Assembly (NCBI GenBank): GCA_001897435.1
Contig: MKSV01000003.1
Coordinates: forward strand, 651,250 to 715,249
Source of the DNA: Acidobacteriales bacterium 59-55
GTDB lineage: Bacteria > Acidobacteriota > Terriglobia > Terriglobales > Acidobacteriaceae
Reading direction: 5' to 3'
Length of the DNA stretch: 64,000 nt
The notes below the pieces were generated by a model. It saw only the letters and a list, made by a program, of their open reading frames with translations. It did no database searches and was not told the origin of the DNA. Within the stretch, counting starts at the first letter, position 1, and each line of letters begins with the position of its first letter. Both the position numbers and the translations under genes were made by a program. Shown in pieces: positions 2,218 through 56,303 of the stretch.

Positions 2218-2364
2218 ATGCCCCATTCGCACTTTTTTAGACGTTCGTGCCCCAGCCAAAGTCCCGGCCCGCCACCCTGGCACTCCCCTCGAACCCGTCG
2301 GCATGAGGAGAAAATCCGCGCCGTGCCCTCATTTAACCATGACAATCCCGCTACCATGGGAGCG

Positions 2365-3219
2365 ATGACGGAACCCATCCCCACCGCGCCGCCGCTGCTC
2401 GACATTCGCAGCCTCAACGTCGCCTTCGGCCCCCAGTCTGCGGTCTCCCAATCCGCAGTCAAAGACATCTCCTTTCATATCGATCCCGGCGAAACGCTGG
2501 GGCTGGTCGGCGAGTCCGGCTCTGGCAAGTCCGTCACCTCGCTGGCCATCCTGCGCCTGCTTCCTCCCTTCGCGCGCGTCACCGGAGAGATTACGCTTGG
2601 CGGCGAAGATCTGCTCGCGCTGCCGGAGGAGGCCATGCGCCGTCATCGCGGCAGCAGCATCGCCATGATCTTCCAGGAGCCGATGACCGCGCTCAATCCG
2701 TCGATGGCCGTCGGCGCGCAGATCGCCGAAGGACTCGTCGCGCACCATCCCGAGCTGTCCCGTAACTCCATCCGGCAGAAGGTGCTGGACGCCATGAACG
2801 AGGTCGGGCTGCCCGACGCCGAGCGCCGCTTCGGCGACTATCCCCACCAGTTTTCCGGCGGCCAGCGCCAGCGCATCCTCATCGCCATGGCGCTCATCAA
2901 CCGCCCCCGGCTGCTGATCGCCGACGAGCCCACCACCGCGCTCGACGTCACCGTCCAGGCCCAGATTCTGCGCCTGCTCAACGACCTGCGCCGAACTCAC
3001 AACCTCGCCATGCTCTTCATCTCGCACGATCTCGCTGTCGTCTCCGAAGTCGCCGACCGGGTCGCCGTCATGCAGCACGGCGAAATCGTCGAGCAAGCCC
3101 CGGCCGAGACTCTCTTCCGACACCCCCGGCATCCCTACACCCGCAGCCTGCTGGCCGCCGCGCCCACCATGCGTACGGACCGCGACCGCCCCCTGGCATC
3201 TCCAATCTCGATGGGATAA
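2365..3219 (+). CDS. Dipeptide/oligopeptide ABC transporter ATP-binding protein (orphan)
   Basis: Walker A GESGSGKS, signature FSGGQRQR, Walker [24 protein letters not shown]. Confidence 0.9.
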
Positions 3220-3310
3220 TCCATTCCCCAGAGTCAAACGTGCGCCCCCGCAAATGCGCTAAACTCGCTAAGCCTCGCTAAAACTACGGAAACTGGTCCA
3301 TCCCCGGCAA

Positions 3311-38517: not shown

Positions 38518-38577
38518 CTCCTTCATGGTATCGCGCCGCACCTCAAACCCGTCTCAACCGCAGCCATCCTCAAACAA

Positions 38578-38657
38578 ACGTCATCTCGACCCGGAGCCCC
38601 CCTCAAAGAAACGTCATCTCGACCGGAGCGAAGCGCAGTGGAGAGACCCCTGTATTT
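38578..38657 (+). repeat. REP-like family A (two heads)
   Basis: Family A termini. Confidence 0.8.
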
Positions 38658-38731
38658 TGTATTTGCCTTTCCTCCGCACTCTCTCCAAACGCACCACCGC
38701 CGCTCTTCCCCGAGGCTCTAATATAGAGACC

Positions 38732-39396: not shown

Positions 39397-39426
39397 TACC
39401 TCGATATCTCCTCCAAAATTCAAACG

Positions 39427-39490
39427 CACGTCATCTCGACCGAAGGCGTGCAGTTTTGTCGCGCGCCGCAGCGGAAAGCCCCTTGTATTT
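39427..39490 (+). repeat. REP-like family A (diverged)
   Basis: CGTCATCTCGACC head, CCCTTGTATTT tail. Confidence 0.7.
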
Positions 39491-39718
39491 CGCCTCTATC
39501 GCAGCGCCAGCCTTCCTTAGTTTATGGTTGAATCATGCCGTCCCTTTGAAGGTCCGCATGAGGCTGGCCATCACTGTTTTAGCAGGTGACCGCAGAGGTG
39601 TCCAAAGAAAAGTGGACACCTCTCGGTTTTACTATCGCGTTGGGCGCTCTTGGCTGCATCGCTTCTTGGGATGCGAGCGGGCCACCGGGGTTGTCTCTGC
39701 CCACGGCAGCCCCGGTTT

Positions 39719-39922
39719 TTATTCGTCGCCAGGCAGAGCGTAGCGGGTGTAGGACACTTCGCCGCGAGCGCCACAGGCAGGACAGCGGTTCAGGCATGTA
39801 CTCGGATTGCGCGGCTTCCAACCGTGATGGCACAGCCCGCACGTAGCACGGAGCCGCCGCGCCAAGGACACCTCTGTTTCAAGCAGCGCCGACAGTTGGG
39901 CCGACGAGATGTACACCTTCAT
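39719..39922 (-). CDS. Small Zn-ribbon protein (element cargo, 67 aa)
   Basis: AAGGTG SD then MKVYISS...TCGLCHHGWKPRNPSTCLNRCPACG. Confidence 0.6.
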   Translation of the reverse strand: MKVYISSAQLSALLETEVSLARRLRATCGLCHHGWKPRNPSTCLNRCPACGARGEVSYTRYALPGDE

Positions 39923-40902
39923 CACCTTCTCTTTCACCGAAACACCTCCTGTACACAGGACTACCACCAAAAAGCAGAGCGCCCCACCAAGGCCGAGCCA
40001 AGCTCCGGGGCTACCCGGCACCCCAGCCGACGCGGGCGAGTACCCGCGTGAGGCATGGGCGGCAGTACCAGCCCCGTGGGATGAGCGAGCGGAAGTACAC
40101 CAGCGCCGAGCGCTGATGGCAATGTGGGCAAGTGGCGACGATGCGATGAGACGACATGATGAACCCCCCCTAGGGCTGATTGCCCGGTATGGTTTCCCCC
40201 ACTGCATGGAGTCAAGGCGGGCGGCTTTATCGCCCCCGCGTGAGCGGCGCGGAGCGGCCTTGACCCATGCGGCATAGTGGGGGAACCGGGCAACAGCCTT
40301 TATCCGGGGGCAGGGCGAAGCCGTGAGGCCCCCTTGCGGGGCCGAAGCTGTTGCCGTTGCTGTTGCCGTTGCCTTTGCCTTTGCTGTTGCTTTGCGGCGG
40401 GGCGAAGCCGCGTAGCGGCGAGGTTGGTTTTTGCCGCGAAGCGGGCCGGAGCGGGGCTTTGCGGCGCGGAGGCCCCCGCCGAAGGCGGGAGGGCGACGCC
40501 GGGCCGCGCGGGGCGAGCGAAGCGGGGGCGTGGTGGGCCGCGCGGCACGGCGGGAGGCGTAGCCGGGAGCGAACGCCGTACTGTGGCGTGAGCGGAGGCC
40601 CAGCCGACGCCGGGACCGGCTGCGGGGCGAAGCGCAGCGGAGCAGTGCTGCGCGAGAGCGCAGAGCATGGCGCGTGACGCGGGCACTATCGCGGCGCGTG
40701 ACGTGCGGCACCGGGGCAGGGGACCCGCCGCAGCCGGACAGCCTGCCCGGGCCGCGCGGACGAAGCGCAGCGGAGGAGCACGACCGGGCACACAGATTGC
40801 CTGTAAACATCCGGGGCTTCCAGACCATCGGAGTTGCAAGACACTGCCGCTCCGGGTGCGCGGTCGAGCCGCGCCAGCCTCAGAAGCGTCCAGATGCACG
40901 AA

Positions 40903-40922
40903 GGCCCCGGTTGTCCGGGGCC
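40903..40922 (-). terminator. Hairpin ending the element's minus-strand operon
   Basis: GGCCCCGG-ACAA-CCGGGGCC-TTCGT on the minus strand, just after the 36-aa ORF. Confidence 0.55.
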
Positions 40923-40937
40923 TTGAGTGTGGGAGGG

Positions 40938-41048
40938 CTACTTGTGCCGCTTGGGTGCTGTTGGGCGCTTGACCTTGGGCGTGTGAACTTTGGGCCGGTT
41001 GACCTTGGGCGCGTGAATCACTGGCCGCTTTGCTCCTTGTTTGCTCAT
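40938..41048 (-). CDS. 36-aa Lys/Pro-rich basic peptide (element cargo)
   Basis: AAAGGAAG SD; MSKQGAKRPVIHAPKVNRPKVHTPKVKRPTAPKRHK. Confidence 0.5.
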   Translation of the reverse strand: MSKQGAKRPVIHAPKVNRPKVHTPKVKRPTAPKRHK

Positions 41049-41073
41049 TGCTATTGCTTCCTTTCCGGGCGCG

Positions 41074-41292
41074 TCAGCGTCCTGCTGCGACCGCGTGAAG
41101 CGCGGTAGGTTGAGTGGGTGCCTTGGCCTGGCGCGGGTGTGTCCAGTCCGGGGCGTGGTTGTGGTGCATCGCTGGCACGACGGCGATGGGCTTGGACGGC
41201 TTTTTTTCGTGGGGCCAGATGGCCGCCGCGACCTCATCGCCGACGACGCAGAAGCACGTCATGCAGCCAGGCACGAAGCCGACGACGCGCAC
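41074..41292 (-). CDS. Possible 72-aa hypothetical protein (element cargo)
   Basis: GTG overlapping the upstream stop (TAGTG); fills the gap in the operon. Confidence 0.35.
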   Translation of the reverse strand: MRVVGFVPGCMTCFCVVGDEVAAAIWPHEKKPSKPIAVVPAMHHNHAPDWTHPRQAKAPTQPTALHAVAAGR

Positions 41293-41582
41293 TAGCGGCG
41301 CTCCGGCGCGTCCGCTGCGGTGATCCAGAGCCGGGCCGCCTTCACCAGTTGCTGCGACTCTCTGATTGTGATGAGGTGAAGCTCGATGCCGCGCACCACG
41401 GTTGCGAGATACGCTTGCACGGACACCCGGCTCTCCAAGATGGGCATGTTCATGCGATAGGCGACTCGCGCCGCTTCGTTGGCGGCCCGCTGATCGCCGC
41501 CACATTCTACGATGCAGCGGCAGGCCTGGGCCGCCGCCTTCACTGCGAGGTGGACAGCCTCCGCGATGGTTGGTTCGTTCAT
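41292..41582 (-). CDS. 96-aa helical hypothetical protein (element cargo)
   Basis: ATGA overlap with integrase stop; GGAGG SD. Confidence 0.7.
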   Translation of the reverse strand: MNEPTIAEAVHLAVKAAAQACRCIVECGGDQRAANEAARVAYRMNMPILESRVSVQAYLATVVRGIELHLITIRESQQLVKAARLWITAADAPERR

Positions 41583-42585
41583 TGGATTGCCTCCGTGTGT
41601 GGGTTGAGTTTGGCGAGTTCGAGGATGGATGGCTCGACCGGCGTGGCGTGGTGGTCGAGGTAGATGAGCGTTGTTTGCAGGTCTTTGTGTCCGAGGACCG
41701 CTTGCACTTTACGGAGGTCGCGCGTCAGGTCGTAGACGCGCGCCGCCGTGGTGCGGCGTAGATCGTGCGAGGTGAGTTGCTTGGTGATCCCACACTCTTT
41801 GCGCAGTTTGTTGAAAGCGAGACTGAGTGACGATGCGGTGTTGTGACCGCGCGGACTCATCTGCGAGACGTAGGAGGTGATGCGGTCCGTTGTGTAGAGC
41901 GCGAACATTGCCGCGAGTTCGGCCGTGACTGGCAGCGTGAGCCGGTTCTGGTACTTGGTGGAGAAGGTAATCTCCCGGCGCTCGGAGTCGTAGTTGTTTG
42001 GACAGATGGCCGCCGCCGTGCTCTTTCGCAGGGCGAGGTCCGAACACAAGAGGATGTAGCAGCGCAGATGCAGCGGCGCGCGGCGCAGCAGCATCTCTCG
42101 CTCTTTGCCGGTGGCAGTGATGGCGCGCGGCGATGGACGTGTGACCTTGGGCACGTCGGCGAGCAGCGTATAGCTTGCGCCGTGCCGCTCGACCAGCCAG
42201 CGGATGATTTTCTTGAGGCACTGCGCGCGCTTGTAGCGAGTGTCGGCCGCGAGTTTTTGATACATCGCAGCGGCGCTCAGTACATCGGCTCGGCTGAGGT
42301 CGCGTACCTGCGTGTATCCTGCCGAGGCTATGAGGTACTTTGCCGAGGAGCCGGTGTGCGTGTGCCAGACGCCGCGCGCTTCGTTTTGACACGCGAACCA
42401 CGCCGTAAGCTCGGCGAGGACGACTCGCGCGACTGTCGGACCCCGCCTTTCCGTTTTGGGCGCGCCGCGCTCTTTCGCTCCTCTTCGTACTGCCGTGCAT
42501 CGTCTTCCGTTGTGAATGCCTTGCGGCGACGAACGCCGCGCCGGTCGCGCCAATCTGCATAGAAGCGATTGTCTTTCTGGTACAT
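41579..42585 (-). CDS. Tyrosine recombinase/integrase, two frames joined by predicted -1 frameshift (about 335 aa)
   Basis: Frame A (42585-42328) Arm-like MYQKDNRFYADWRDRRGVRRRKAF with GAGGTG SD; frame B LALRKS, HDLRRT, LGH, TTLIY catalytic set. Confidence 0.85.
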
Positions 42586-42648
42586 GGACACCTCTGGACA
42601 CCTGAGCGGCGCTGTGCAGCCGCGCCTCCCTTGGTTTATCGTCAGTTC

Positions 42649-45627
42649 ATGCCGTCCCTTTGGACCCCTCCTAATTGGCCACAGCGCCTTGCCGAACTTC
42701 AAGCCCCTACCGGAGACCTGAAAGAAGCCCCTTTACGACGTGATGTGCGTTCCCTCGGCGCCCTCCTCGGAGGCGTCCTGCGCGAGCAGGCGGGCGATGC
42801 CCTCTACGACGCCGTCGAAGCCCTCCGCCGCACCGCCATCGCCCGACGCGAGGCCGACGCCCGAGGCGACTCCAAAGCCGCCGCCGCGCACCTCGAAGAG
42901 GCTCTGGAGCGCGTCGCCGCGCTCGATCTCCCTTCCGCCTATCGCCTCGCCCGCGCCTTTGGCTTCTACTTCGAGCTCATCAACCTCGCCGAGACCAATC
43001 ACCGCAAGCGCCGCCGCCTGGCCATCCAGCTCGATCCCAACGCCGCCCCACAGCGCGGCGACCTGCGCGGAACCCTCCGCCGCCTGCGCGAGGCCGGCCT
43101 CGACGCCGCCCAGGCCTACGATCTGCTCCGCCGCATCTGCATCACGCCCGTCTTCACCGCGCACCCCACCGAGGTCGCCCGGCGCTCGGTCATGTTCAAG
43201 CGCCGCCGCATATCCGACCTGCTCGAACAGCTCGACCGCATCCCGGTGCCGAACGCCCATCTCGAATCGCTCGAGCGCGACCTCACCGCCGAGATCACCG
43301 CGCTCTGGCAGACCGACGACGTGCGCAGCGCCCGCCCCACCGTCCGTGACGAGATGCGCATGGCCCTCGACTACTACGAGACCAGCCTCTTCGACACCCT
43401 GCCCGTGCTCTACTCCGAGGTCGCCGCCGCGCTCGCCGAAGAGTACCCCGAATCCGCGGGTGAAAGCTCTGTTAAGGGCACGGCTTCAGCCCTGCCGGAA
43501 GCCACAACCAATAAAGGGGCTTTAGCCCCCGAGGGACACCCCCGCGCCATCTCCGATCTGCCCCAACTCGTCAGCTTCGGCTCCTGGATCGGCGGCGACC
43601 GCGACGGCAATCCCTTCGTCATCGCCGATGTCACCCGCGACGCCCTGGCCCTGGCGCAGAACCTTCTGCTCAACCACTACCGCCGCCGCCTGCAGAACGT
43701 CTTCGAGCAGCTCGGCAGCTCCGTCCAGCAGGTACCCGTCTCCGCCGCGGTCACCGCGCAGCTCGACCTCTACCTCGACCGTCTGCGCTCCGCCGGCCAG
43801 ACCACGCTCGAAGAGCGCTTCCCCCACGAGCGCCTCCGTTTGCTCATCGCCTGCATCATGATGCGGCTGGGAGCGACCCCGCAGTCCGGCCTGCCGCTTC
43901 CCTCCGAGCCCGCACTCACCCCCTACACCCGCGCCGCCGACCTGCTCGCCGACCTTGCACTGCTGCGCGGCAGCCTCGCCGAAAACCACGGCCACCGCCT
44001 GGCGCAGATGCTCATCGACCCGCTGCTGATCGAGGTCCGCACCTACGGCCTTCACCTCCAAACGCTCGACATCCGCCAGCACGCCCGTTTTCACTCCGCC
44101 GCCATCGCCGAAATTCTGGGCGAAGCATCACGGGAGGCGGGATCACAAACCCTCCAGCTCCCCCCAGCCCTCAGCCCGCAGACCACCGAGGTCCTCAACA
44201 CCTTCCGCGCCATCGCCGAGCTCAAGCAGGCCTACGCGCCCGAGTCCATCCAGCAGTACGTCATCAGCGGCGCAACCTCGGCCACCGACATCCTCGACGT
44301 GCTCCAGCTCGCCCGCCTCGGCGGCGTCAAGGTCGAGGGCGACCCCGGCCTTGGCGACCCCGGCCTGCAACCCGTCCCGCTCTTCGAGTACATCGAAGAC
44401 CTGCAGAACGCGCCCGCCGTCATGCGCCGGCTCTGGACCAGCGAAGCCTACAGGCCCCTGCTCGAAAGCTGGAACTACCGCCAGGAGGTCATGCTCGGCT
44501 ACTCCGACTCGAACAAGGACGGCGGCATGATCTCAAGCACCTGGGAGATCTACAAAGCTCACCGCGCCCTGCACCAGGTCGCCCGCGAGTGCGGCGTCCA
44601 TCTGCGCCTCTTCCACGGCCGCGGCGGCACCGTGGGCCGCGGCGGCGGCCCCACGCATCGCGCCATCTTCGCCCAGCCCATCGACAGCTTCACCGGCGAG
44701 CTTCGCCTCACCGAACAAGGCGAAGTCCTCAACTGGAAATACTCCGACGTCGTCCTCGCCGAGCGCAATCTGGAGTTGATGATCGCCGCCTCGCTCGACG
44801 CCATCGCCCGCCCGGACGCAAAGATCCAGGCCGCACAACCAGCAACCGGCAATCAACAACCAGCAACCGGCAACCAGCAACCAAATCCCGCCCCCCACCT
44901 CACCGGCGAGATTCTCCCCGAATGGGAGGCCGCGCTCGACGAGCTTTCGGCCACCTCCCGCGCCTTCTACCGCAAACACATCATCGACAACCCGGACACC
45001 TTCACCTACTTCGAGCAGTCCACGCCGGTCGCCGAACTCGAGCACGCCCGCCTCGGCTCCCGCCCCTCCAAGCGCAGCAAGAAGAAGTCCATGGACGACC
45101 TCCGCGCCATCCCCTGGGTCTTCGGCTGGATGCAGTCCCGCCAGCTCGTTCCCGCATACTTCGGCGTCGGCCACGCCCTCGAACTCTTCGTCAAGGAGCA
45201 CACCGATGGCCTCGCCCTGCTCCAGACCATGACCCGCTCCTTCCCGCTCTTTCTCGACATCGTCCGCAACGTCGAGATGGCGCTGGCCAAGGCCGACTTC
45301 GGCATCGCCCGCCTCTATGCCTCGCTGGTCGAGGACGCCGCCCTGCGCGACCGCGTCTTCACCACCCTCGAAGCAGAGTTCGACCTCACCCTGCGCATGA
45401 TCCTCGCCATCACCGGGCAGAAGGCGCTGCTCGAGACCAACCCCGTGCTCGAACGCTCCATCCGCCTGCGCAATCCCTACGTCGATCCCATGTCGCTGAT
45501 CCAGGTCGAGCTGATCCGCCGCAAGCGCGCCTTAATGGCCGCAGGCAAGCCCGACTCGCCCGAGCTGAACCGCGCCATCTCGGCCACCATCAACGGCATC
45601 AGCTCCGGCCTCCGCAACACCGGCTGA
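42649..45627 (+). CDS. ppc: Phosphoenolpyruvate carboxylase
   Basis: VFTAHPTE, SWIGGDRDGNP, QEVMLGYSDSNKDGG, FHGRGGTVGRGGGP, LRAIPWVFGW, LRNPY, GLRNTG. Confidence 0.97.
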   Translation: MPSLWTPPNWPQRLAELQAPTGDLKEAPLRRDVRSLGALLGGVLREQAGDALYDAVEALRRTAIARREADARGDSKAAAAHLEEALERVAALDLPSAYRLARAFGFYFELINLAETNHRKRRRLAIQLDPNAAPQRGDLRGTLRRLREAGLDAAQAYDLLRRICITPVFTAHPTEVARRSVMFKRRRISDLLEQLDRIPVPNAHLESLERDLTAEITALWQTDDVRSARPTVRDEMRMALDYYETSLFDTLPVLYSEVAAALAEEYPESAGESSVKGTASALPEATTNKGALAPEGHPRAISDLPQLVSFGSWIGGDRDGNPFVIADVTRDALALAQNLLLNHYRRRLQNVFEQLGSSVQQVPVSAAVTAQLDLYLDRLRSAGQTTLEERFPHERLRLLIACIMMRLGATPQSGLPLPSEPALTPYTRAADLLADLALLRGSLAENHGHRLAQMLIDPLLIEVRTYGLHLQTLDIRQHARFHSAAIAEILGEASREAGSQTLQLPPALSPQTTEVLNTFRAIAELKQAYAPESIQQYVISGATSATDILDVLQLARLGGVKVEGDPGLGDPGLQPVPLFEYIEDLQNAPAVMRRLWTSEAYRPLLESWNYRQEVMLGYSDSNKDGGMISSTWEIYKAHRALHQVARECGVHLRLFHGRGGTVGRGGGPTHRAIFAQPIDSFTGELRLTEQGEVLNWKYSDVVLAERNLELMIAASLDAIARPDAKIQAAQPATGNQQPATGNQQPNPAPHLTGEILPEWEAALDELSATSRAFYRKHIIDNPDTFTYFEQSTPVAELEHARLGSRPSKRSKKKSMDDLRAIPWVFGWMQSRQLVPAYFGVGHALELFVKEHTDGLALLQTMTRSFPLFLDIVRNVEMALAKADFGIARLYASLVEDAALRDRVFTTLEAEFDLTLRMILAITGQKALLETNPVLERSIRLRNPYVDPMSLIQVELIRRKRALMAAGKPDSPELNRAISATINGISSGLRNTG
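43473..43534 (+). repeat. Palindromic REP-like element lying in frame inside ppc
   Basis: GGCACGGC-TTCA-GCCCTGCC and GGGGCT-TT-AGCCCC hairpins; related intergenic copy at about 57905-57972. Confidence 0.65.
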
Positions 45628-49089: not shown

Positions 49090-49266
49090 ATGAAGAGTAG
49101 TGAGTTCAAGCGTTGGCTCGCGGAGCAGGGCGCGACCTTCAAAACCGGCAAGGGCTCGCATCTCAAAGTCACCCTGAACGGCAGGCAATCGGTCCTCCCC
49201 ATGCACAACAAGGAACTCGGCACAGGCCTCGTACAGGCAATCAAAAAGCAGTTGGGACTCAAGTAG
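49090..49266 (+). CDS. hicA: HicA family toxin
   Basis: MKSSEFKRWL..QG..F..GKGSH...LPMH..ELG.GL..AIKKQLG. Confidence 0.92.
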   Translation: MKSSEFKRWLAEQGATFKTGKGSHLKVTLNGRQSVLPMHNKELGTGLVQAIKKQLGLK

Positions 49267-49275
49267 GAGACGGCC

Positions 49276-49704
49276 ATGCGATATCCATTCAAGATGCGGC
49301 GGGACGGCAGATATTTTCTCGTGACCTTCCCCGACCTTCCCGAAGCCATCACGCAGGGTGAAAGCGAAGCGGAAGCTCTCACGGCAGCCAGAGACGCCCT
49401 CGAAACCGCTCTGGACTTCTATTTCGAAGGTGGTCGAATCGTTCCCGGCCCCTCTGCTCTCAAACGCGGACAACGATTTGTCGAACTGCCGGTCAGCCTT
49501 TCGGCCAAAGTCCTGCTCCTCAACGAAATGTTGCGGCAGAAGATTCGCCCGGCTGAGCTGGCGCGGAGGCTGCATACCATTCCGCAGGAGGTCAACCGGC
49601 TCATCAATCTACACCACACCTCGAAGATCGACCGAATTGCCGAGGCGATGAAGGTCCTCGGCAAGAATCTGCACATCAGCGCCACAAGAGACGAAGCCGC
49701 CTGA
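49276..49704 (+). CDS. hicB: HicB family antitoxin with C-terminal HTH
   Basis: VTFPDLPEAITQG, AELARRL...QEVNRLINL. Confidence 0.9.
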   Translation: MRYPFKMRRDGRYFLVTFPDLPEAITQGESEAEALTAARDALETALDFYFEGGRIVPGPSALKRGQRFVELPVSLSAKVLLLNEMLRQKIRPAELARRLHTIPQEVNRLINLHHTSKIDRIAEAMKVLGKNLHISATRDEAA

Positions 49705-49754
49705 AGAGCGATATTTGGCAGTCATCATGCGGCGGATATGTTGGCGCCGGGTGC

Positions 49755-49847
49755 GGGTGCCCCATATCCCGCTTCTGAGACATGGGCTCTCTCCCCGACC
49801 TCAACCGCCCGGGTGCCCCATCCATCGCGCTTCATGCGATGGGTGGG
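49755..49847 (+). repeat. Family B palindromes (two copies)
   Basis: GGGTGCCCCAT heads with hairpin bodies matching 27176 and 27351-27386. Confidence 0.72.
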
Positions 49848-49858
49848 AAAGCAAATTT

Positions 49859-51241
49859 TTACCCGTCTTTCCTCTCCCGCTTCCCCACCACAGGCACCAC
49901 CCGCTCCACCTCACCCCGGCCCTCGTGCAGAATCCGCACGGCAGCCTCCTTGGCCAAATCCCGCCCGGTCTCCGCCATCGCCTTCGGCTCGCCCAGCACC
50001 ATCCGCGCCGCGCCGCGCAGAATCCTCCGCACCGGCCAGCCTCCGTCCGCGTTCGGCAGAAAGATCTCTCCCACCCGCTGCTTCTCCGGTCTGTAGTACC
50101 ACCGCCGCAGCAAAGAAAGATGATCGCTCAGCACGGCCAGATCAGGAGCCGGGTTGCCCGCCGCACCCACCTTCGCCTTCAGCCTCTCGATCACCGCCCT
50201 GGCCCTCTCCTCCGGTGAATCGTCCGGCGCAACAGCCGCCCCCTCCAGCGGAACCGCCTGCAACATCAGCGGCTGCGCAAACAGCGAACTGCCCACGCTG
50301 GTCTGCTCCTTCACCGCCCGCACCCCCAGCGTCGACAGCCGCTCCGGGCCCGCGATGTAGCCCCCTTCAAGCAGAAACACCGCGGCATTTTCGCCCTCAT
50401 CGTCTTCCTGCGCCGCCTTCTGCACGATCACCGCCTCCAACTCCGGCACCGGACGCACCAGCCAGTCCGCCAGCGCCGCCGCGGCCTTCACCTTCTGCCA
50501 CTGCGCATGAAGCGCCGCTGCCCGCTCGAACTCCATCTCCGCCGAGGCCCGCTCGCGCTCCGCCCCGACCTCGGCCAGCAGGCTCTCGCCGCCTGTCTCG
50601 AAGAACGCCTTCACCCGTCCCGCCTCCGCCGCATATTCGTCCGGCGAACAGGCTTGCTTGCACGGCTCCATGCACTTCTTCATCTCGCCGTAGACGCAGC
50701 CCGGATGCCCCGGATACGGCTCCAGATCCTCCCAGCACCGGCGCAGCTTGAACAGGTCCAGCACCGCGTCTGCGTACCGCTCCGCCGCCGTCCGCGAAGG
50801 AAACGGCCCATAGAGATGGGCCAGGCCGCGCCGGGTCAAACGGTTGGTCGTGTACAGCCGCGGATGCGCGTTCTCCATCGTCAGCCGCAGAAAATACGGC
50901 GTGTGCAGCTTCAGCCGCCGCCGTGCCGCCGCATAGCCGAACTCAGCTGCCGCCGCGTGATAGAGCGTCAGCGCAGATTCGAACTCCGACCCGGTCACGC
51001 TGTACTCGATACGCGCGACCTTCTCCCGCAGGTTCAGCCGCCGCGACTGCGACTCCGGCGGCGCCAGCAGCCGCCGCATGCGCCGCCGCAGGTCCGCCGT
51101 CCGCGTCAGATACGGCTCGTCGCCCTCACGCGCGCCGCATAGCGCAAAGACGCCCGGCAGCGCCGGAACCGCGCGCAGAATCTCCTCCGCCCGCTCCGGC
51201 AGAAAATCGGCGACATGATCGAAATGGAAGCTCACCGCCAC
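49859..51241 (-). CDS. UvrC/Cho-like protein (GIY-YIG-like, Cys cluster, UVR domain; no RNaseH/HhH C-terminus recognised)
   Basis: PALPGVF, EKVARIEYSVTGSEFESAL, YGPFPS, CVYGEMKKCMEPC, ASAEMEFERAA. Confidence 0.72.
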   Translation of the reverse strand: MAVSFHFDHVADFLPERAEEILRAVPALPGVFALCGAREGDEPYLTRTADLRRRMRRLLAPPESQSRRLNLREKVARIEYSVTGSEFESALTLYHAAAAEFGYAAARRRLKLHTPYFLRLTMENAHPRLYTTNRLTRRGLAHLYGPFPSRTAAERYADAVLDLFKLRRCWEDLEPYPGHPGCVYGEMKKCMEPCKQACSPDEYAAEAGRVKAFFETGGESLLAEVGAERERASAEMEFERAAALHAQWQKVKAAAALADWLVRPVPELEAVIVQKAAQEDDEGENAAVFLLEGGYIAGPERLSTLGVRAVKEQTSVGSSLFAQPLMLQAVPLEGAAVAPDDSPEERARAVIERLKAKVGAAGNPAPDLAVLSDHLSLLRRWYYRPEKQRVGEIFLPNADGGWPVRRILRGAARMVLGEPKAMAETGRDLAKEAAVRILHEGRGEVERVVPVVGKRERKDG

Positions 51242-51580
51242 ACCCGGATTGTAGATTCTCTGCGTCGATTCGTTCCCGCCCGCTTTCGCCGCTGCGGCCG
51301 CTCGCGCCTATTTTCCTATTGATCCTAAAACGCTTCAGCAAGCTGCTCATTCATCCAGAAGGCTGCTAACCCATTGATTAATACCATGTTACATAGAATC
51401 CAAACGGGAATTGGCTTTCCCAGAAGTGTGCAAACTTTGACACCTTCAGGACGAAACTATTGTGGATTTCGCCTTAGACACACTCGAAACAAAAAGGTTA
51501 GCGGTTACTCCCCTTTGGAACCGAAAGTGCTTTCAGCAATCGAGTACGCCAGCAAACCATCTTCAGGAAGGAACAACTTC

Positions 51581-52231
51581 ATGTCCATGCGCCTGACCAA
51601 AGTACTTATCGCAGCCTTGGCTCTCTCCGTCTCCTCGGCCGTCTGCCGGGCAGATAACTTCTCTTTCACCGGCAACTTCAGCGACATCAACGAAGTCCAG
51701 CTCTTCACCTTCTCCGTCGGAGCGACCTCGACCGTCACCCTCCGCACCTACGGCTACGCCGGCGGAACCAACTCAGCCGGTCAGCTCATCGCCGAAGGCG
51801 GCTTCGATCCAATCCTCGCCCTCTTCCAGGGAACCGGCCCCACCGCCATCCAGATCGGCCAGAACGACGACGGCGGCTGCGGCTTCGTTCCTTCGGACTC
51901 CGTCAGCGGAGAGTGCTGGGACACGTATCTCCAGCTCACCAATCTCGCCGCCGGCGATTACACCGTCTCCATTCAGGACTACGCGAACTTTGCCAACGGC
52001 CCCACTTTGGGCGACGGCTTTAGCGGCGGCGCTCTGACCGGCGGCACCTTCATCGACTTCGACGGTCATAACCGCGACAGCCATTGGGCCTTCGACGTCC
52101 TGGGCGTCGAGTCGGCCGGCAACCCCACGCAGCCGCCCACCTCGCCCGTCCCGGAGCCGTCTTCGATCGCGCTTCTGGGCACCGGCCTCGCCGGGCTCGT
52201 CACCGGCGTTCGCCGCCGCATGAGCGCCTGA
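51581..52231 (+). CDS. PEP-CTERM protein (DVUA0089-like domain)
   Basis: Signal peptide; GGFDPILALF...QNDD; VPEPSSIALLGTGLAGL..RRR. Confidence 0.85.
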   Translation: MSMRLTKVLIAALALSVSSAVCRADNFSFTGNFSDINEVQLFTFSVGATSTVTLRTYGYAGGTNSAGQLIAEGGFDPILALFQGTGPTAIQIGQNDDGGCGFVPSDSVSGECWDTYLQLTNLAAGDYTVSIQDYANFANGPTLGDGFSGGALTGGTFIDFDGHNRDSHWAFDVLGVESAGNPTQPPTSPVPEPSSIALLGTGLAGLVTGVRRRMSA

Positions 52232-52335
52232 CCCGGCTCTCACGCCTCACCGCAAAGCAGACCCCTGCCCCCGGATAAATGCCGGAGACAGGGGTTTTCC
52301 TATTCCCAAAGCAGTCGCTCGACCCACCTCGAAAG

Positions 52336-52393
52336 CACGTCATCTCGACCGGAGCGACGGACAACTTCATCGTCCGGCGCGCAGCGGAGAGAC
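52336..52393 (+). repeat. REP-like family A (tail truncated)
   Basis: Head and GGAGAGAC. Confidence 0.7.
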
Positions 52394-52590
52394 ATTGGAT
52401 TCAAGATCGAAGTGCAACTTTGTCTCATTTTTGCCCTGTATTGCGCCGGTGTCTCGCCTCTATCTTGATTCAGGCGGCGAGATGGCTTTCTGAACAGACT
52501 GTTAGTGCATCGCGGAAAGTCTTAACGGAACCGGCTGCGACCTATGCTACCTTGCAAGGGATACCCTGGATACGCTCTGGAGGAGGTCCT

Positions 52591-53127
52591 ATGGCTGCAA
52601 ACGAGATAGACCCCCAATACCCGGTCGGCAGGTTCCAGAGGCCGGAGACGATCACGGCGGATGACCGCGAGGAGGCGATCGCGACGCTGGCCGAGTTGCC
52701 GGAGACGCTGCGTAACGCCGTCGACGGGCTGGACATCGCGCAACTGGAGACGCCCTACCGCGAGGGCGGGTGGACGGTGCTGCAGGTGGTGCACCACGTG
52801 GCCGACAGCCATATGAACGCCTTCGTCCGGCTGCGGCTCGCGCTGACCGAGGACTGGCCGACGATCAAGCCCTATGACGAGAAGGCCTGGGCAAGGCTGC
52901 GCGATGCGACGGCGGCCCCGGCGGAGTGGTCGCTGGAGCTGATCGAGAGCCTGCACGCGCGCTGGGTGCTGCTGCTGCAATCGCTCGACGAACAGCAGTG
53001 GAAGCGCGGCTTTCACCACCCGGAGAACGGGCCGGCGACGGTGGAGGCGACGACGCTGATGTATGCGTGGCACTCGCGTCACCATGTGGCGCACATTACG
53101 CGCCTGCGCATGCAAAGAGGCTGGTAG
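52591..53127 (+). CDS. YfiT/DinB family thiol transferase-like protein
   Basis: YPVGRF, TPYREGGWTVLQVVHHVADSH, YAWHSRHHVAHI; GGAGG SD. Confidence 0.9.
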   Translation: MAANEIDPQYPVGRFQRPETITADDREEAIATLAELPETLRNAVDGLDIAQLETPYREGGWTVLQVVHHVADSHMNAFVRLRLALTEDWPTIKPYDEKAWARLRDATAAPAEWSLELIESLHARWVLLLQSLDEQQWKRGFHHPENGPATVEATTLMYAWHSRHHVAHITRLRMQRGW

Positions 53128-53149
53128 GCATCCCTATGAAGGTGGCCGC

Positions 53150-54790
53150 GTGAAGGCGAAGCTGCCGCGCCGCGTCTCGGCGACGAAGCCTGAGCCCGAG
53201 CAGACTGTCGAAGAGATTGCCGCCGCGGTCGGCGAAGTTGCCGCAGCGATCGAGGCGTTTCTCGCCGAGCATCCCGGGGCGGTGGTGCTCGAAGACGGTA
53301 GAGTGCTCTTCGACATGCACGAGGCGAAGTACTCCCTGTCGACGGAGCATGGACGATGCACGCTGCACCTGTGGAGCGAGGAGCGCAATCTGGTGCGGCG
53401 GGTGGGCGCGGCGGCGCTGAGAAACGGCGTGCTGCGGCTCAGTACCTATCGCTTCGGGCAGACGAAGGCGCAGACGCTGGAGCTGACCGCGGATAAGGAC
53501 CGGCGCACGCCTTCGACCCGGGAGGCGACGCGGGTGAGGTATCTGCGCGTACTGGAGCGGGCGCTGGAGCGGAGCTTTCCCGGCTGGACACCGGATGGGC
53601 TGCGCACGGCGAGAGATCTCGAAAAGAGCTTTGGCCCGGCCTATGCGCGGGGATCGCTCGTCGAGGGGCAGAAGGCGTGGGCGGTCATCGCGGTCAACGA
53701 AGAAGAGACGCAGGCGACCATCGACGGCATCCTGACGCTGGGCATTCTGTGGCTGCATCACTGTCGCGAGTCCGGAGGCGGCCGTAGAGTCTACCACGGA
53801 TTGCGGTTAATTGTTCCACGTGGAACATCCTTGATTACCCTCTCGCGGATGGCCTGGCTGAACGCCGACGCCGCGCAGTGGGAGCTGTGGGAGATGGACC
53901 AGGCGACCGAGGCGTTGACCCGGCGCGATGCCGCCGACCACGGCAACCTGACCACGCGGCTGATGCACGCGCCCAACGAGGCAGCGGCGCGGGAGCGCTT
54001 TGCGGAGGCGGCGGCCCGCGTGATGGATCTGGTGCCGGAACCGATGCGCGAGCTGGTCGAGCAGAGGATTCGCACCGGCACGGAGATGGCGTTTCTTCTG
54101 CACGGGTTGGAGTTTGCGCGGATCAGGATGGGGTACGCGGGCAACTCGTTCAACAGCGCTCAGGAGATCACCTTCGGCGCGGGAGCCAACGAGACCCCGC
54201 TTGCCGTGGAGAACGAAGACGAGCTGCGGGAGCTGGTGACGCGGCTGTTTGCGCGCAGGACGGCGGGCGGCGACGGGCGCGATCCGCTCTACCGCATGCA
54301 GCCGGAGCGGTGGCTGGAGAGCGTGCTGCGGAGGGAGGTCGAGGTGCTCGACGAGCACCTTGACGCGGCGCATGTCTACACGCAGGTACCGGCCTTTGCG
54401 GCGGCGGACCGGGGGATGCTCGACCTGCTGGGCGTGACGGATGAGGGTCGGCTGGCGGTGATCGAGCTGAAGGCCGACGAGGACCTGCACCTCGCGCTGC
54501 AGGGGCTGGACTACTGGGTGCGGGTGCGATGGCACCACATGCAGCATCCCGACCAGGCGACCGGGCTGGGGGAGTTTCAGCGGCGCGGATACTTCGGCGG
54601 CGTGCGGCTGGCCGCGGAGGCGCCGAAACTTTATCTCGTCGCCCCGGCGCTGAGGGTGCATCCGGCGACGGAGACGGTGCTGCGGTACCTGTCGCCACGA
54701 GTGGAGTGGACGCTGGTAGCGCTCGACGAGCGCTGGCGGGAGAAGGTGAAGGCGGTGTGGCGGAAGCGGAGCCGCGCAGTTGCAAAGTAA
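53150..54790 (+). CDS. Hypothetical protein with C-terminal PD-(D/E)xK (NucS/EndoMS-like) nuclease motif
   Basis: LDLLGVTDEGRLAVIELKADEDLHLALQGLDYW. Confidence 0.6.
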   Translation: MKAKLPRRVSATKPEPEQTVEEIAAAVGEVAAAIEAFLAEHPGAVVLEDGRVLFDMHEAKYSLSTEHGRCTLHLWSEERNLVRRVGAAALRNGVLRLSTYRFGQTKAQTLELTADKDRRTPSTREATRVRYLRVLERALERSFPGWTPDGLRTARDLEKSFGPAYARGSLVEGQKAWAVIAVNEEETQATIDGILTLGILWLHHCRESGGGRRVYHGLRLIVPRGTSLITLSRMAWLNADAAQWELWEMDQATEALTRRDAADHGNLTTRLMHAPNEAAARERFAEAAARVMDLVPEPMRELVEQRIRTGTEMAFLLHGLEFARIRMGYAGNSFNSAQEITFGAGANETPLAVENEDELRELVTRLFARRTAGGDGRDPLYRMQPERWLESVLRREVEVLDEHLDAAHVYTQVPAFAAADRGMLDLLGVTDEGRLAVIELKADEDLHLALQGLDYWVRVRWHHMQHPDQATGLGEFQRRGYFGGVRLAAEAPKLYLVAPALRVHPATETVLRYLSPRVEWTLVALDERWREKVKAVWRKRSRAVAK

Positions 54791-54833
54791 GGCTTCGGAA
54801 ACAAGGTTGGGACTGGACTACCTGACCCTGACA

Positions 54834-54924
54834 AAATACAGGGGTCTCTCCACTGCGCTTCGCTTGCACCCCAGCGAGTCAAGTGCACTCGCCGGGGACC
54901 CCGCGCTCCGGTCGAGATGACGTG
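54834..54924 (-). repeat. REP-like family A, long variant
   Basis: Near reverse complement of 18157-18250. Confidence 0.8.
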
Positions 54925-54996
54925 CATTCGTCGATGAGGCGGGCGCGAGGCTATAAAATAAAACTAGTAGCTGGACAGATAGGAAACGACTCCGCA

Positions 54997-55344
54997 ATGC
55001 CGCTCTACGAATACGAATGCACTGCCTGCCATCGCCATACTGAAAAGATCCAGAAGTTCTCCGACCCCGAGATCACGGTCTGCCCGCACTGCGGCGGCAC
55101 GCTCGAGCGCGTCCTCTCCGCGCCCGCAATCTCCTTCAAGGGCGGCGGATGGTATGCCGACGGCTACGGCAACGCCAAGCCGAAGTCGACCGGCGCAAGC
55201 GATACCAAGAGCGATACCAAGAGCGCCGCGTCCGGTTCGGGTTCCAGCTCGGAATCCAGCGCGGCCCCTGCCTCCGCACCGGCGGCTACGGCTGCACCTG
55301 CCGCCGCGACAGCTCCGGCGGCGGCCTCTTCCGACAAGAAGTAA
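54997..55344 (+). CDS. FmdB family zinc-ribbon protein
   Basis: MPLYEYECTAC...CPHCGG..ERVLS..AISFKGGGWY. Confidence 0.92.
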   Translation: MPLYEYECTACHRHTEKIQKFSDPEITVCPHCGGTLERVLSAPAISFKGGGWYADGYGNAKPKSTGASDTKSDTKSAASGSGSSSESSAAPASAPAATAAPAAATAPAAASSDKK

Positions 55345-55353
55345 CCGAGAGAG

Positions 55354-55701
55354 CTACTCCTGCGGCAACATTCGGATGAGTTCCTGCTCTCCGTTGAGCA
55401 GGTAATACGCAATGAACTTCATGGGCTCGGTTGCAGACGCATTATCGAAGCGTGCGATGACGGCGTTCGCCGGCTCGTAAAAGGCGGAGCCGGCGGCCAG
55501 CGTATGCGGCTCTGCTTCCTCTTCTCGTTGAAATAAGGCCGTCCCTTCAGCGATGTACCCCACCACCGGACAAGGGTGCGAATGCCGCCCGGTCTGCTGA
55601 CTGGGGTGGAAGACAATCTCGCGAACGTCGACATGCGTCACGGTGCGGCTGCCGAGCATCGCATCCAGCAAAGGCCTTCTTCGAATTGCATCTTCTGCCA
55701 T
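55354..55701 (-). CDS. Cupin domain protein
   Basis: HSHPCPVVGYIAEG, GSAFYEP. Confidence 0.8.
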   Translation of the reverse strand: MAEDAIRRRPLLDAMLGSRTVTHVDVREIVFHPSQQTGRHSHPCPVVGYIAEGTALFQREEEAEPHTLAAGSAFYEPANAVIARFDNASATEPMKFIAYYLLNGEQELIRMLPQE

Positions 55702-55822
55702 GCCCTTTGGATTGCGGCGCTCAGCCTCCGGATTCAGCGGCGATCAAGTTTTCTAAGATGGTCTTAAGTATTCCGGGATGCTCTCTGTTTATTTTTTCAG
55801 GATGCTCTCTGTTTATTTTTCT

Positions 55823-56149
55823 TTAGCTCTTCTTCCTTGGCACCTTCGCGCCGGATTTGCGCGCCTCGGAGAGGCCGATGGCGATGGCCTGCTTGCGGCT
55901 GGTGACCTTCCTGCCGCTACCGCTCTTGAGCTTGCCCTGCTTCATGGCCTTCATCTCGCGCTCGACGCTCTTGCCGGCGGCCTTGCCGTACTTCGGGCTT
56001 GAGGTGCGCTTCTTCGCGGCTGTCTTTTTGGTTGCGGCTTTTTTGCTTGCGGCTTTTTTGGCTGAAGATTTTTTGGTCGTGGACTTTTTGGTAGATCTCT
56101 TTATCGATTTTTTTGCCGGGGATTTCTTTGCTGCCTTTTTCGTTGTCAT
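55823..56149 (-). CDS. Lys-rich histone-like protein with DUF6496-like C-terminus
   Basis: KKAA repeats; VEREMKAMKQGKLKSGSGRKVTSRKQAIAIGLSEARK. Confidence 0.8.
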   Translation of the reverse strand: MTTKKAAKKSPAKKSIKRSTKKSTTKKSSAKKAASKKAATKKTAAKKRTSSPKYGKAAGKSVEREMKAMKQGKLKSGSGRKVTSRKQAIAIGLSEARKSGAKVPRKKS

Positions 56150-56235
56150 AAGATTCTCCCTGTTTCTAAGAGTCTTGAATTGCGTCGATCGTTGCACGCA
56201 CCCTCATCGAGGGTTTGCCCGGTGAAGCAACAGGA

Positions 56236-56303
56236 AAATACAGGGGTCTCTCCACTGCGCGGCGGACGGTGAAGCTGTCCGCCGCTGCGGTCGAGATGAC
56301 GTG
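56236..56303 (-). repeat. REP-like family A
   Basis: Family A termini, reverse orientation. Confidence 0.8.

Follow-up and report, generated by a model that had tools for sequence, protein, structure and literature searches.

What is the 3.1 kb of DNA that separates two identical 16-bp sequences at the start of ppc, the phosphoenolpyruvate (PEP) carboxylase gene, in Acidobacteriales bacterium 59-55? We addressed this question in a 64,000-nucleotide stretch of the genome (assembly GCA_001897435.1, contig MKSV01000003.1, positions 651,250 to 715,249), hereafter the window, in whose coordinates positions are given. A preliminary description, made from the letters of the window, had read the interval as a minimal integrative element. 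Our analysis indicates that the 3114 bp are probably the integrated copy of a non-autonomous, site-specific integrative element that belongs to a large family in the Acidobacteriaceae, and whose integrase gene carries a predicted programmed -1 frameshift signal.

An insertion at the start codon of ppc

The 16-mer TCATGCCGTCCCTTTG occurs exactly twice in the window (39533-39548 and 42647-42662), against a chance expectation of 0.03, and no further copy appears there even when two mismatches are tolerated. The two copies are spaced 3114 bp start to start, and 23 upstream bases prolong them imperfectly into a 39-nt repeat of 82% identity (39510-39548 versus 42624-42662), which forms the left and right attachment sites, attL and attR. 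The right copy holds the ppc ATG together with the MPSL codons, and ARAGORN detected no tRNA or tmRNA gene in the window, so that the element is not located at a tRNA target. The preliminary description, which had named a perfect 16-bp repeat as the boundary of 3114 bp and the start of a protein gene rather than a tRNA as the target, was therefore right on both points.

We then compared the locus with 40 relatives, using a 5.2-kb query that spans it. In the closest relative (G006), whose ppc is 86% identical, the two flanks lie about 100 bp apart, compared with 3.2 kb here, and the junction GTTTATGGTTGAGTTATGCCGTCCCTTTGGACCCC consists of the left half of attL and the right half of attR; given this empty site, the 3114 bp represent an insertion. 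Ten further relatives (11 including G006) also have the native ppc upstream region, while the ppc site of a second species (G015) carries a related element after the same core. The left flank of the latter matches ours (folD, a Trm112-like open reading frame (ORF) and a small ORF), and the two elements share 78-87% identity over the arm region and a 300-bp block, the G015 contig stopping before the integrase. Direct repeats and an empty site in relatives thus confirm a site-specific integrative element, which is single-copy in its own 4.9-Mb genome. The comparison shows that it was inserted by recombination between a site on the element and a chromosomal site of about 39 bp, comprising the -10 box, the start codon and the first four ppc codons, with the crossover inside the 16-bp identical core. 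An ancestral origin of the 3.1 kb and a lack of related elements elsewhere, the objections that the preliminary description had raised to its own proposal, both fail on these data, as the relatives listed above have the native site and as related elements exist at the same site in G015 and, for some 100 more, at other sites, with sizes consistently of about 3 kb.

The insertion exchanges the promoter region of the target gene. In the 11 relatives, a -10-like box (CATAAT, TATGGT or TATCGT) is conserved before ppc and ends 6 nt 5' of the ATG, and a Shine-Dalgarno sequence is absent; together, these two features suggest that the ppc mRNA is leaderless. The alignment shows that the element-borne copy of the ppc leader keeps the -10-like box at its native spacing as well as an intact reading frame, the TATCGT of the attR arm being the variant native to another relative, G007. 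Beyond about -25, the upstream region of ppc is element DNA, including a predicted pair of integrase-binding sites, and the displaced native promoter at attL now points at a hairpin formed by arm sites and followed by a T-run, resembling a terminator. The promoter pattern is the same at the target of the element of Granulicella rosea, described below.

The motif GGACACCT occurs seven times in the window, versus 1.24 expected, and five of these occurrences lie inside the element, near both ends. An inverted pair is positioned 48-73 nt inside attL, and a direct pair, reading AGGTGTCC twice on the integrase strand, immediately precedes the integrase. The pair upstream of the integrase ATG is kept in 11/11 homologues from a scan of the genus and in many, not all, distant ones. 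Moreover, the motif varies between elements in step with the integrase (TGTGTCC at both ends of the G058 element). From this pattern we infer a heterobivalent tyrosine integrase, predicted to bind both the core and GGACACCT arm repeats at the two ends.

The surroundings of the element also contain an interspersed repeat of 60-120 nt, present in dozens of copies of 82-98% identity in the same genome and across the genus, some frames of which translate to ...VISTEG.... Copies are located at 38552-38674 and 39420-39497, and one of them separates the upstream ORF from the ppc promoter, at a place where G006 has none. Within ppc, alignments to relatives break at 43455-43541, with about 86 nt here versus about 16 nt in G006; the additional sequence, at about 43470-43541, has matches among repeat copies that other genomes in the genus carry elsewhere, and resembles a repeat inserted in frame.

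A split integrase gene with a predicted -1 frameshift

The integrase is encoded in two reading frames. The zero frame begins with a domain (MYQKDNRFYADWRDRRGVRRRKAF...) that has no Pfam match and that AlphaFold models as three beta strands followed by one alpha helix, with a predicted local distance difference test score (pLDDT) of 88 over 44 residues. The remainder of the enzyme lies in the -1 frame, and its catalytic residues R187, K211, H274, R277, H300 and Y309 are invariant in the integrase alignment. A slippage at the heptamer where the frames meet is predicted to yield a fused product reading ...SAARPK-TERRGPTVARVV.... The same -1 arrangement recurs in homologues that are only 31-47% identical.

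A census of 102 distinct full-length family integrases scored the -1 split in 94, with an in-phase X_XXY_YYZ heptamer near codon 42 in 85 of these (CCCAAAA in 73, GGGAAAA in 5, AAAAAAA in 4, and three further forms in 1 each). Four integrases scored automatically as in-frame turned out on inspection to be -1 split, two with CCCAAAA and two with an A_AAG or A_AAA tetramer, and no genuinely in-frame member was found among the 102. Sequencing error is excluded by the presence of the split in about 100 independent assemblies, and a run of four A's is too short for the transcriptional slippage known from insertion sequence (IS) elements. Past the heptamer, at a distance of 5-6 nt, we found a 9-bp stem, for which 7/9 pairs have changes on both sides among 25 relatives. 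Compensated cells number 27, versus 10 +/- 2.5 after shuffling (0/500 shuffles reach 27), and 80% of cells are paired, versus 39-62% in controls with the partner shifted by 1-3 columns. The heptamer and the covarying stem together point to a conserved programmed -1 frameshift signal at the split of the integrase gene. Frameshifting in integrases is unmentioned in two large surveys of recoding and in a classification of tyrosine recombinases (PMC3711429, PMC5009743, PMC8138268), and a full-text literature search found no description of it in tyrosine integrases. Both the family of elements and recoding in a tyrosine integrase are apparently undescribed.

Based on this arrangement, we propose that translation would begin at ATG 42585, with ribosomes first reading through the 44 codons of the arm-binding domain; on reaching C_CCA_AAA, and aided by the stem-loop 6 nt on, a fraction of them would slip by -1 and produce the full-length integrase, while non-slipping ribosomes would release a short arm-binding protein. 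The integrase start is overlapped by arm sites, for which this short protein could compete if it behaves like OrfA of the IS3 family; such competition would determine how much integrase is made and in which direction recombination runs. The gene that follows, which we named orfX, appears translationally coupled to the integrase stop and would probably act in excision or integration, by analogy with the integrase-overlapping gene of the phage-inducible chromosomal minimalist islands (PICMI).

A small gene set in a widespread family

All ORFs on both strands of the element, plus 10 accessory ORFs of relatives, were compared with Pfam and PHROGs. The sole domain found in the element is that of a phage-type integrase (PF00589, 1.3e-17), and domains for Rep, relaxase, primase, helicase, packaging, capsid or transfer functions were detected neither there nor in the 10 accessory ORFs, in agreement with the preliminary description, which had recognised no Rep, relaxase, primase or capsid gene. 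With regard to integrative mobilizable elements, no relaxase domain was found in the tested ORFs, and an origin of transfer is not recognisable from sequence alone. Likewise, none of the markers of phage satellites (P4-like, PICI, PLE and PICMI: AlpA/regulator, primase/replicase, packaging/capsid redirection) was found by Pfam or PHROGs in the element. The gene list first proposed needs amending: the integrase stands and spans two frames, the one zinc-ribbon ORF is in fact two, of 48 aa and 67 aa (Zn48 and Zn67), and the non-coding block described as structured folds no better than shuffled sequence on either strand (z = -0.37 and -0.05).

Iterated profile searches recovered the gene orfX from at least 30 elements; in 35 of 37 elements, an ATGA, GTGA or TTGA marks the overlap of its start with the integrase stop. 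AlphaFold models its product as a four-helix bundle (pLDDT 94.7), for which Pfam, PDB sequences and Foldseek-PDB gave no informative match; public data hold at least 915 clusters of orfX proteins, every one labelled hypothetical. Differences between Zn48 of our element and that of G015 are distributed 4/5/18 over the three codon positions, which clearly points to a coding gene under purifying selection. A block rich in guanine and cytosine (GC; at least 72% over 300-600 bp) is present in 18/19 delimited elements, and a run of CAACNG hexamers in three distant family members. Nine members have, 3' of orfX, an ORF with a CPxCC motif, to which the 62-aa ORF of our element is matched by a hidden Markov model (E = 0.004). 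Scans of the element gave sub-threshold chance matches only for Rfam, no sigma70 promoter, and three terminator-like sites, not above chance, one of which is the arm-site hairpin. As judged by sequence comparison, the conserved core is a tyrosine integrase, orfX, GTGTCC-type arm repeats at both ends and the GC-rich non-coding block, the rest being variable. In our element and in that of G015, this rest is made up of Zn48, Zn67, the candidate 36-aa peptide and the diverged Cys-rich ORF. Some relatives encode small helix-turn-helix proteins resembling sigma70 region 4, and a 4.5-kb member (L079, metagenome-assembled genome CAWBSV010000021.1) encodes a 312-aa protein with AbiJ_NTD4 and DUF7014 domains (element positions 2319-3257, minus strand), suggesting that elements of the 3-kb type can carry defence cargo, here a predicted abortive-infection-type AbiJ protein. 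Links between stop-to-stop ORFs obtained by all-against-all blastp without composition correction proved to be spurious, low-complexity matches and were discarded.

Table 1. Features of the element and of its target gene in the window
Feature	Position	Strand	Remarks
attL	39510..39548		39-nt imperfect repeat, perfect 16-bp core 39533-39548; native ppc upstream region, with -10-like TATGGT, on the left
Orphaned ppc stub ATGCCGTCCCTTTGA in attL	39535-39549		ATG CCG TCC CTT TGA, i.e. MPSL-stop
Inverted GGACACCT pair	39594..39623	39596-39603 (-), 39614-39621 (+)	+ strand hairpin, then T-run; conserved in the G015 element
Zn67	39719..39922	-	67-aa CxxC...CxxC zinc-ribbon ORF; motif W.PRNP...NRCP.CG.RG.VSY common to G015
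Third attL-side GGACACCT site	39866..39873	+	
Zn48	40011..40157	-	48-aa zinc-ribbon gene
Conserved non-coding stretch	40158..40300		Upstream of Zn48; 73% identical to G015, no codon-position bias
GC-rich non-coding block	40300..40900		73-81% GC; CAAC(A/C)G-type hexamer run at about 40345-40393
Candidate very basic 36-aa peptide (MSKQGAKRPV...)	40938..41048	-	Start and ribosome-binding region conserved in G015
Candidate Cys-rich 62-aa ORF	41074..41262	-	Diverged homologue of the CPxCC ORF
orfX	41292..41582	-	96 aa; ATG overlaps the integrase TGA (ATGA); family-wide core gene
Integrase, -1 frame	41579..42460	-	Core-binding and catalytic domains; R...K...HxxR...H...Y all present
Predicted stem-loop	42413..42447	-	Starts 6 nt past the heptamer; equivalent stem covaries in 25 relatives
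Predicted slippery heptamer C_CCA_AAA	42454..42460	-	X_XXY_YYZ phase in the zero frame
Integrase, zero frame	42328..42585	-	ATG 42585 led by a Shine-Dalgarno sequence; 44-codon arm-binding-type N-domain; 85-aa product predicted without frameshift
Two direct GGACACCT sites	42586..42603		AGGTGTCC twice on the integrase strand; abut the integrase ATG and overlap its Shine-Dalgarno sequence
attR	42624..42662		Element-borne ppc leader copy (TATCGT, same 6-nt distance to the ATG) and 16-bp core 42647-42662
ppc (PEP carboxylase)	42649..45627	+	Intact coding sequence, starts MPSLWTPPNW; ATG and MPSL codons inside the right repeat copy

Relatives of the integrase, about 100 of them distinct, are found in Acidobacteriaceae genomes and in peat and soil metagenomes. 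A collection of species-representative genomes contains 38 loci (in Granulicella, Edaphobacter, Terracidiphilus, Occallatibacter, a Solibacteraceae metagenome-assembled genome and others), and a relative is encoded by each of at least 258 stretches of metagenomes, the majority of peat and soil origin. The distribution is patchy, with a family integrase in 10/121 species genomes of the genus Granulicella. With a threshold of 14 nt for direct repeats, 16 elements could be delimited, measuring 2816-4516 bp between repeats of 14-55 nt. The "new class of minimal integrative element" of the preliminary description is supported at the level of this family, by some 100 relatives with a consistent size of about 3 kb.

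The targets of the delimited elements are diverse. Eleven of them (2816-4516 bp) have repeats of 14-43 nt at protein gene ends, and others are found at tRNA genes: tRNA-Arg (G058, 3035 bp, with 55 nt of its 3' end), tRNA-Pro (G129, 3030 bp), the 3' end of tRNA-Met (G091, 3889 bp), and tRNA-Met again (G132, 3047 bp), where the 53-nt repeat covers the 5' half of the gene and the integrase is divergent. Insertion at a tRNA 5' end, as in G132 (L040, 202-277 and 3272-3324), is the rarer orientation for islands at tRNA genes. In two elements with 3'-end targets (L057 and L080), the last codons of the gene are replaced by an element-borne copy, and in L063, which has a 5'-end target, a HAD-type hydrolase gains new first codons from the element. 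In Granulicella rosea DSM 18704 (L053 / L219-L220; NZ_FZOU01000005.1, about 49200-56274), two 100% identical copies of 3527 bp lie in tandem, and the 21-bp repeat TTGTCGAGGACGAAGACCATG, present three times, comprises the start codon of a trpG/pabA-like gene (MVFVLDNYDSFTYNLVQY) and six further codons; the integrase and this gene are divergent, a geometry identical to that at ppc. Two observations, the perfection of these tandem copies and the patchy occurrence of the family, speak for recent activity, and this cultured type strain is suited to experiments.

The orfX-bearing contigs of about 3.1-3.8 kb that we inspected are fragments or integrated copies. Two contigs, L235 and one of 3815 bp from JGI, have the same genes in circularly permuted order, as judged by gene sizes and spacing only, which hints at a circle or a tandem array. 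One public JGI contig (L139, JGI26532J50257_10015779, 2762 bp) is 100% identical to 40597-43358 of the window, represents the integrated form and breaks off within the GC-rich block, suggesting that this block hampers assembly. The mode of transfer between cells can be deduced only from the genes that the element lacks: spread from cell to cell would need a helper, either a phage or a conjugative element, or an unrecognised route. The helper-dependent satellite, the other reading offered in the preliminary description, would likewise be deduced only from recognisable replication or transfer genes being absent.

Alternative readings and relation to known systems

Could the element instead be a self-sufficient small replicon, i.e., an integrating plasmid or a very small virus, whose origin would be the GC-rich block with its hexamer run, fired by host proteins or by an unannotated small protein with no replication helper? 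The near-constant presence of the block (18/19 elements) and the hexamer run in three distant members would fit this possibility, as would the perfect tandem dimers in G. rosea, the metagenome contig that, from gene sizes and spacing only, appears circularly permuted relative to another, and the lack of an assigned function for orfX and the small zinc-ribbon proteins. We consider it unlikely, given that the family ORFs tested bear no signature of Rep, primase, helicase or capsid, that the GC-rich block is not unusually structured, and that none of the 80 metagenome loci is a circular contig and no family member is found in the viral contigs of IMG/VR. An immobile, decayed remnant of a larger prophage or integrative and conjugative element, which could be suspected from the small size, the lack of transfer genes and an integrase that appears "frameshifted" to a gene caller, is highly improbable: at least 16 independent elements at different targets, bounded by intact repeats, have the int-orfX layout in common and measure 2.8-4.5 kb, the split is universal and accompanied by the signal, the catalytic residues are intact, the two copies in the type strain are 100% identical, and Zn48 is under purifying selection.

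The frameshift itself could be dispensed with if the zero-frame ORF were a separate small gene for an arm-binding, Xis-like protein and the integrase started independently in the -1 frame. In our element the -1 frame is indeed open upstream of the heptamer, and nine family members are devoid of a canonical heptamer, the latter also counting against the frameshift reading. This explanation appears quite unlikely, since 85/94 members have a heptamer in the right phase at the same codon despite integrase identities that fall to 32-47% among the genome relatives, followed by a covarying stem at the canonical spacing of 5-6 nt; since several homologues have stops in the -1 frame upstream of the junction; and since conserved residues (G.TVA) start directly past the shift site. 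In addition, the arm-binding domains known so far are joined covalently to the rest of the integrase (PMC8138268).

Several further observations weigh against our preferred reading of a mobile element with a frameshifted integrase. Foldseek gave no significant match for the N-domain, that of Tn916 Int ranking 31 (E = 5.8), and the stem-loop of our element, taken alone, is not more stable than shuffled sequences. The roles suggested for the short zero-frame product and for orfX are drawn from analogy only. Finally, the lack of circular contigs among the 80 metagenome loci bears on a mobile element as well, and so does the result for IMG/VR, where only distant integrases were found in viral contigs, a weak negative that leaves no direct link to phage particles. 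On balance, and with somewhat less assurance than for the element itself, we favour a combined picture in which undescribed elements of about 3 kb are widespread in soil Acidobacteriaceae, produce their integrase only via a -1 frameshift, and can insert at the start codons of leaderless genes while swapping their promoter region, with a transfer route that may be undescribed for elements so small.

The nearest described system is that of the PICMI of Vibrionaceae, which are located in fis, have six genes including the defining markers AlpA and primase, and encode Iolg, whose gene overlaps the integrase stop by ATGA and is needed for excision; they have no capsid-remodelling genes and are packaged as concatemers (PMC10803314). 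Our element resembles them in its very small size, its protein gene target, the ATGA-overlapping gene after the integrase and the absence of capsid-remodelling genes, and the tandem copies in G. rosea may be set beside concatemer packaging; orfX is likened to Iolg by the position of this overlap alone. In contrast, AlpA and primase were not found in our element or in the relatives examined, so that it cannot be assigned to PICMI, and the present family is of about 3 kb, belongs to another phylum, and has an integrase that needs a predicted -1 frameshift. With lambda Int and Tn916 Int, the recombinase shares the R-K-H-R-H-Y set and arm repeats at both ends, and its N-domain is modelled with three strands and a helix, as in theirs, but this putative arm-binding domain is encoded in another reading frame. 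Like islands found in tRNA genes, the element restores the end of the target gene that it displaces; in this family, however, targets include start codons, with the integrase divergent from the target, so that it is the promoter region and not a 3' end that is replaced. Phage 21 and e14, both inserted in icd, are examples of insertion into a coding sequence in which an element-borne copy replaces the 3' end and keeps the gene functional. However, these are full prophages or large remnants acting at a 3' end, whereas here 3 kb of DNA replaces the 5' end, with start codon and promoter region.

For the frameshift, the closest parallel is OrfA/OrfAB of the IS3 family (IS911, IS150), in which an X_XXY_YYZ heptamer and a stem-loop join an N-terminal DNA-binding domain to a catalytic domain and the non-shifted product is a short DNA-binding protein, as predicted here. 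The IS3 enzymes are DDE transposases and not tyrosine recombinases, and the regulatory role demonstrated for the short product of IS911 is only suggested, by analogy, for ours. If true, this would be the first case of recoding in tyrosine integrases, implying an IS3-like control in which a short arm-binding protein is set against the full-length enzyme, and it would explain why annotation may label such integrase genes truncated or pseudogenes. Insertion at a start codon with an element-borne promoter region puts a central metabolic gene, ppc here and the trpG/pabA-like gene in G. rosea, beside predicted integrase-binding sites. Taken together, an integrase, a coupled protein modelled as a four-helix bundle, arm sites and a non-coding block make up a very small gene set for an integrating element, conserved in 19 delimited copies, and the least that such a hitch-hiking element needs could be tested in culturable strains, namely Granulicella rosea DSM 18704 and Terracidiphilus gabretensis S55.

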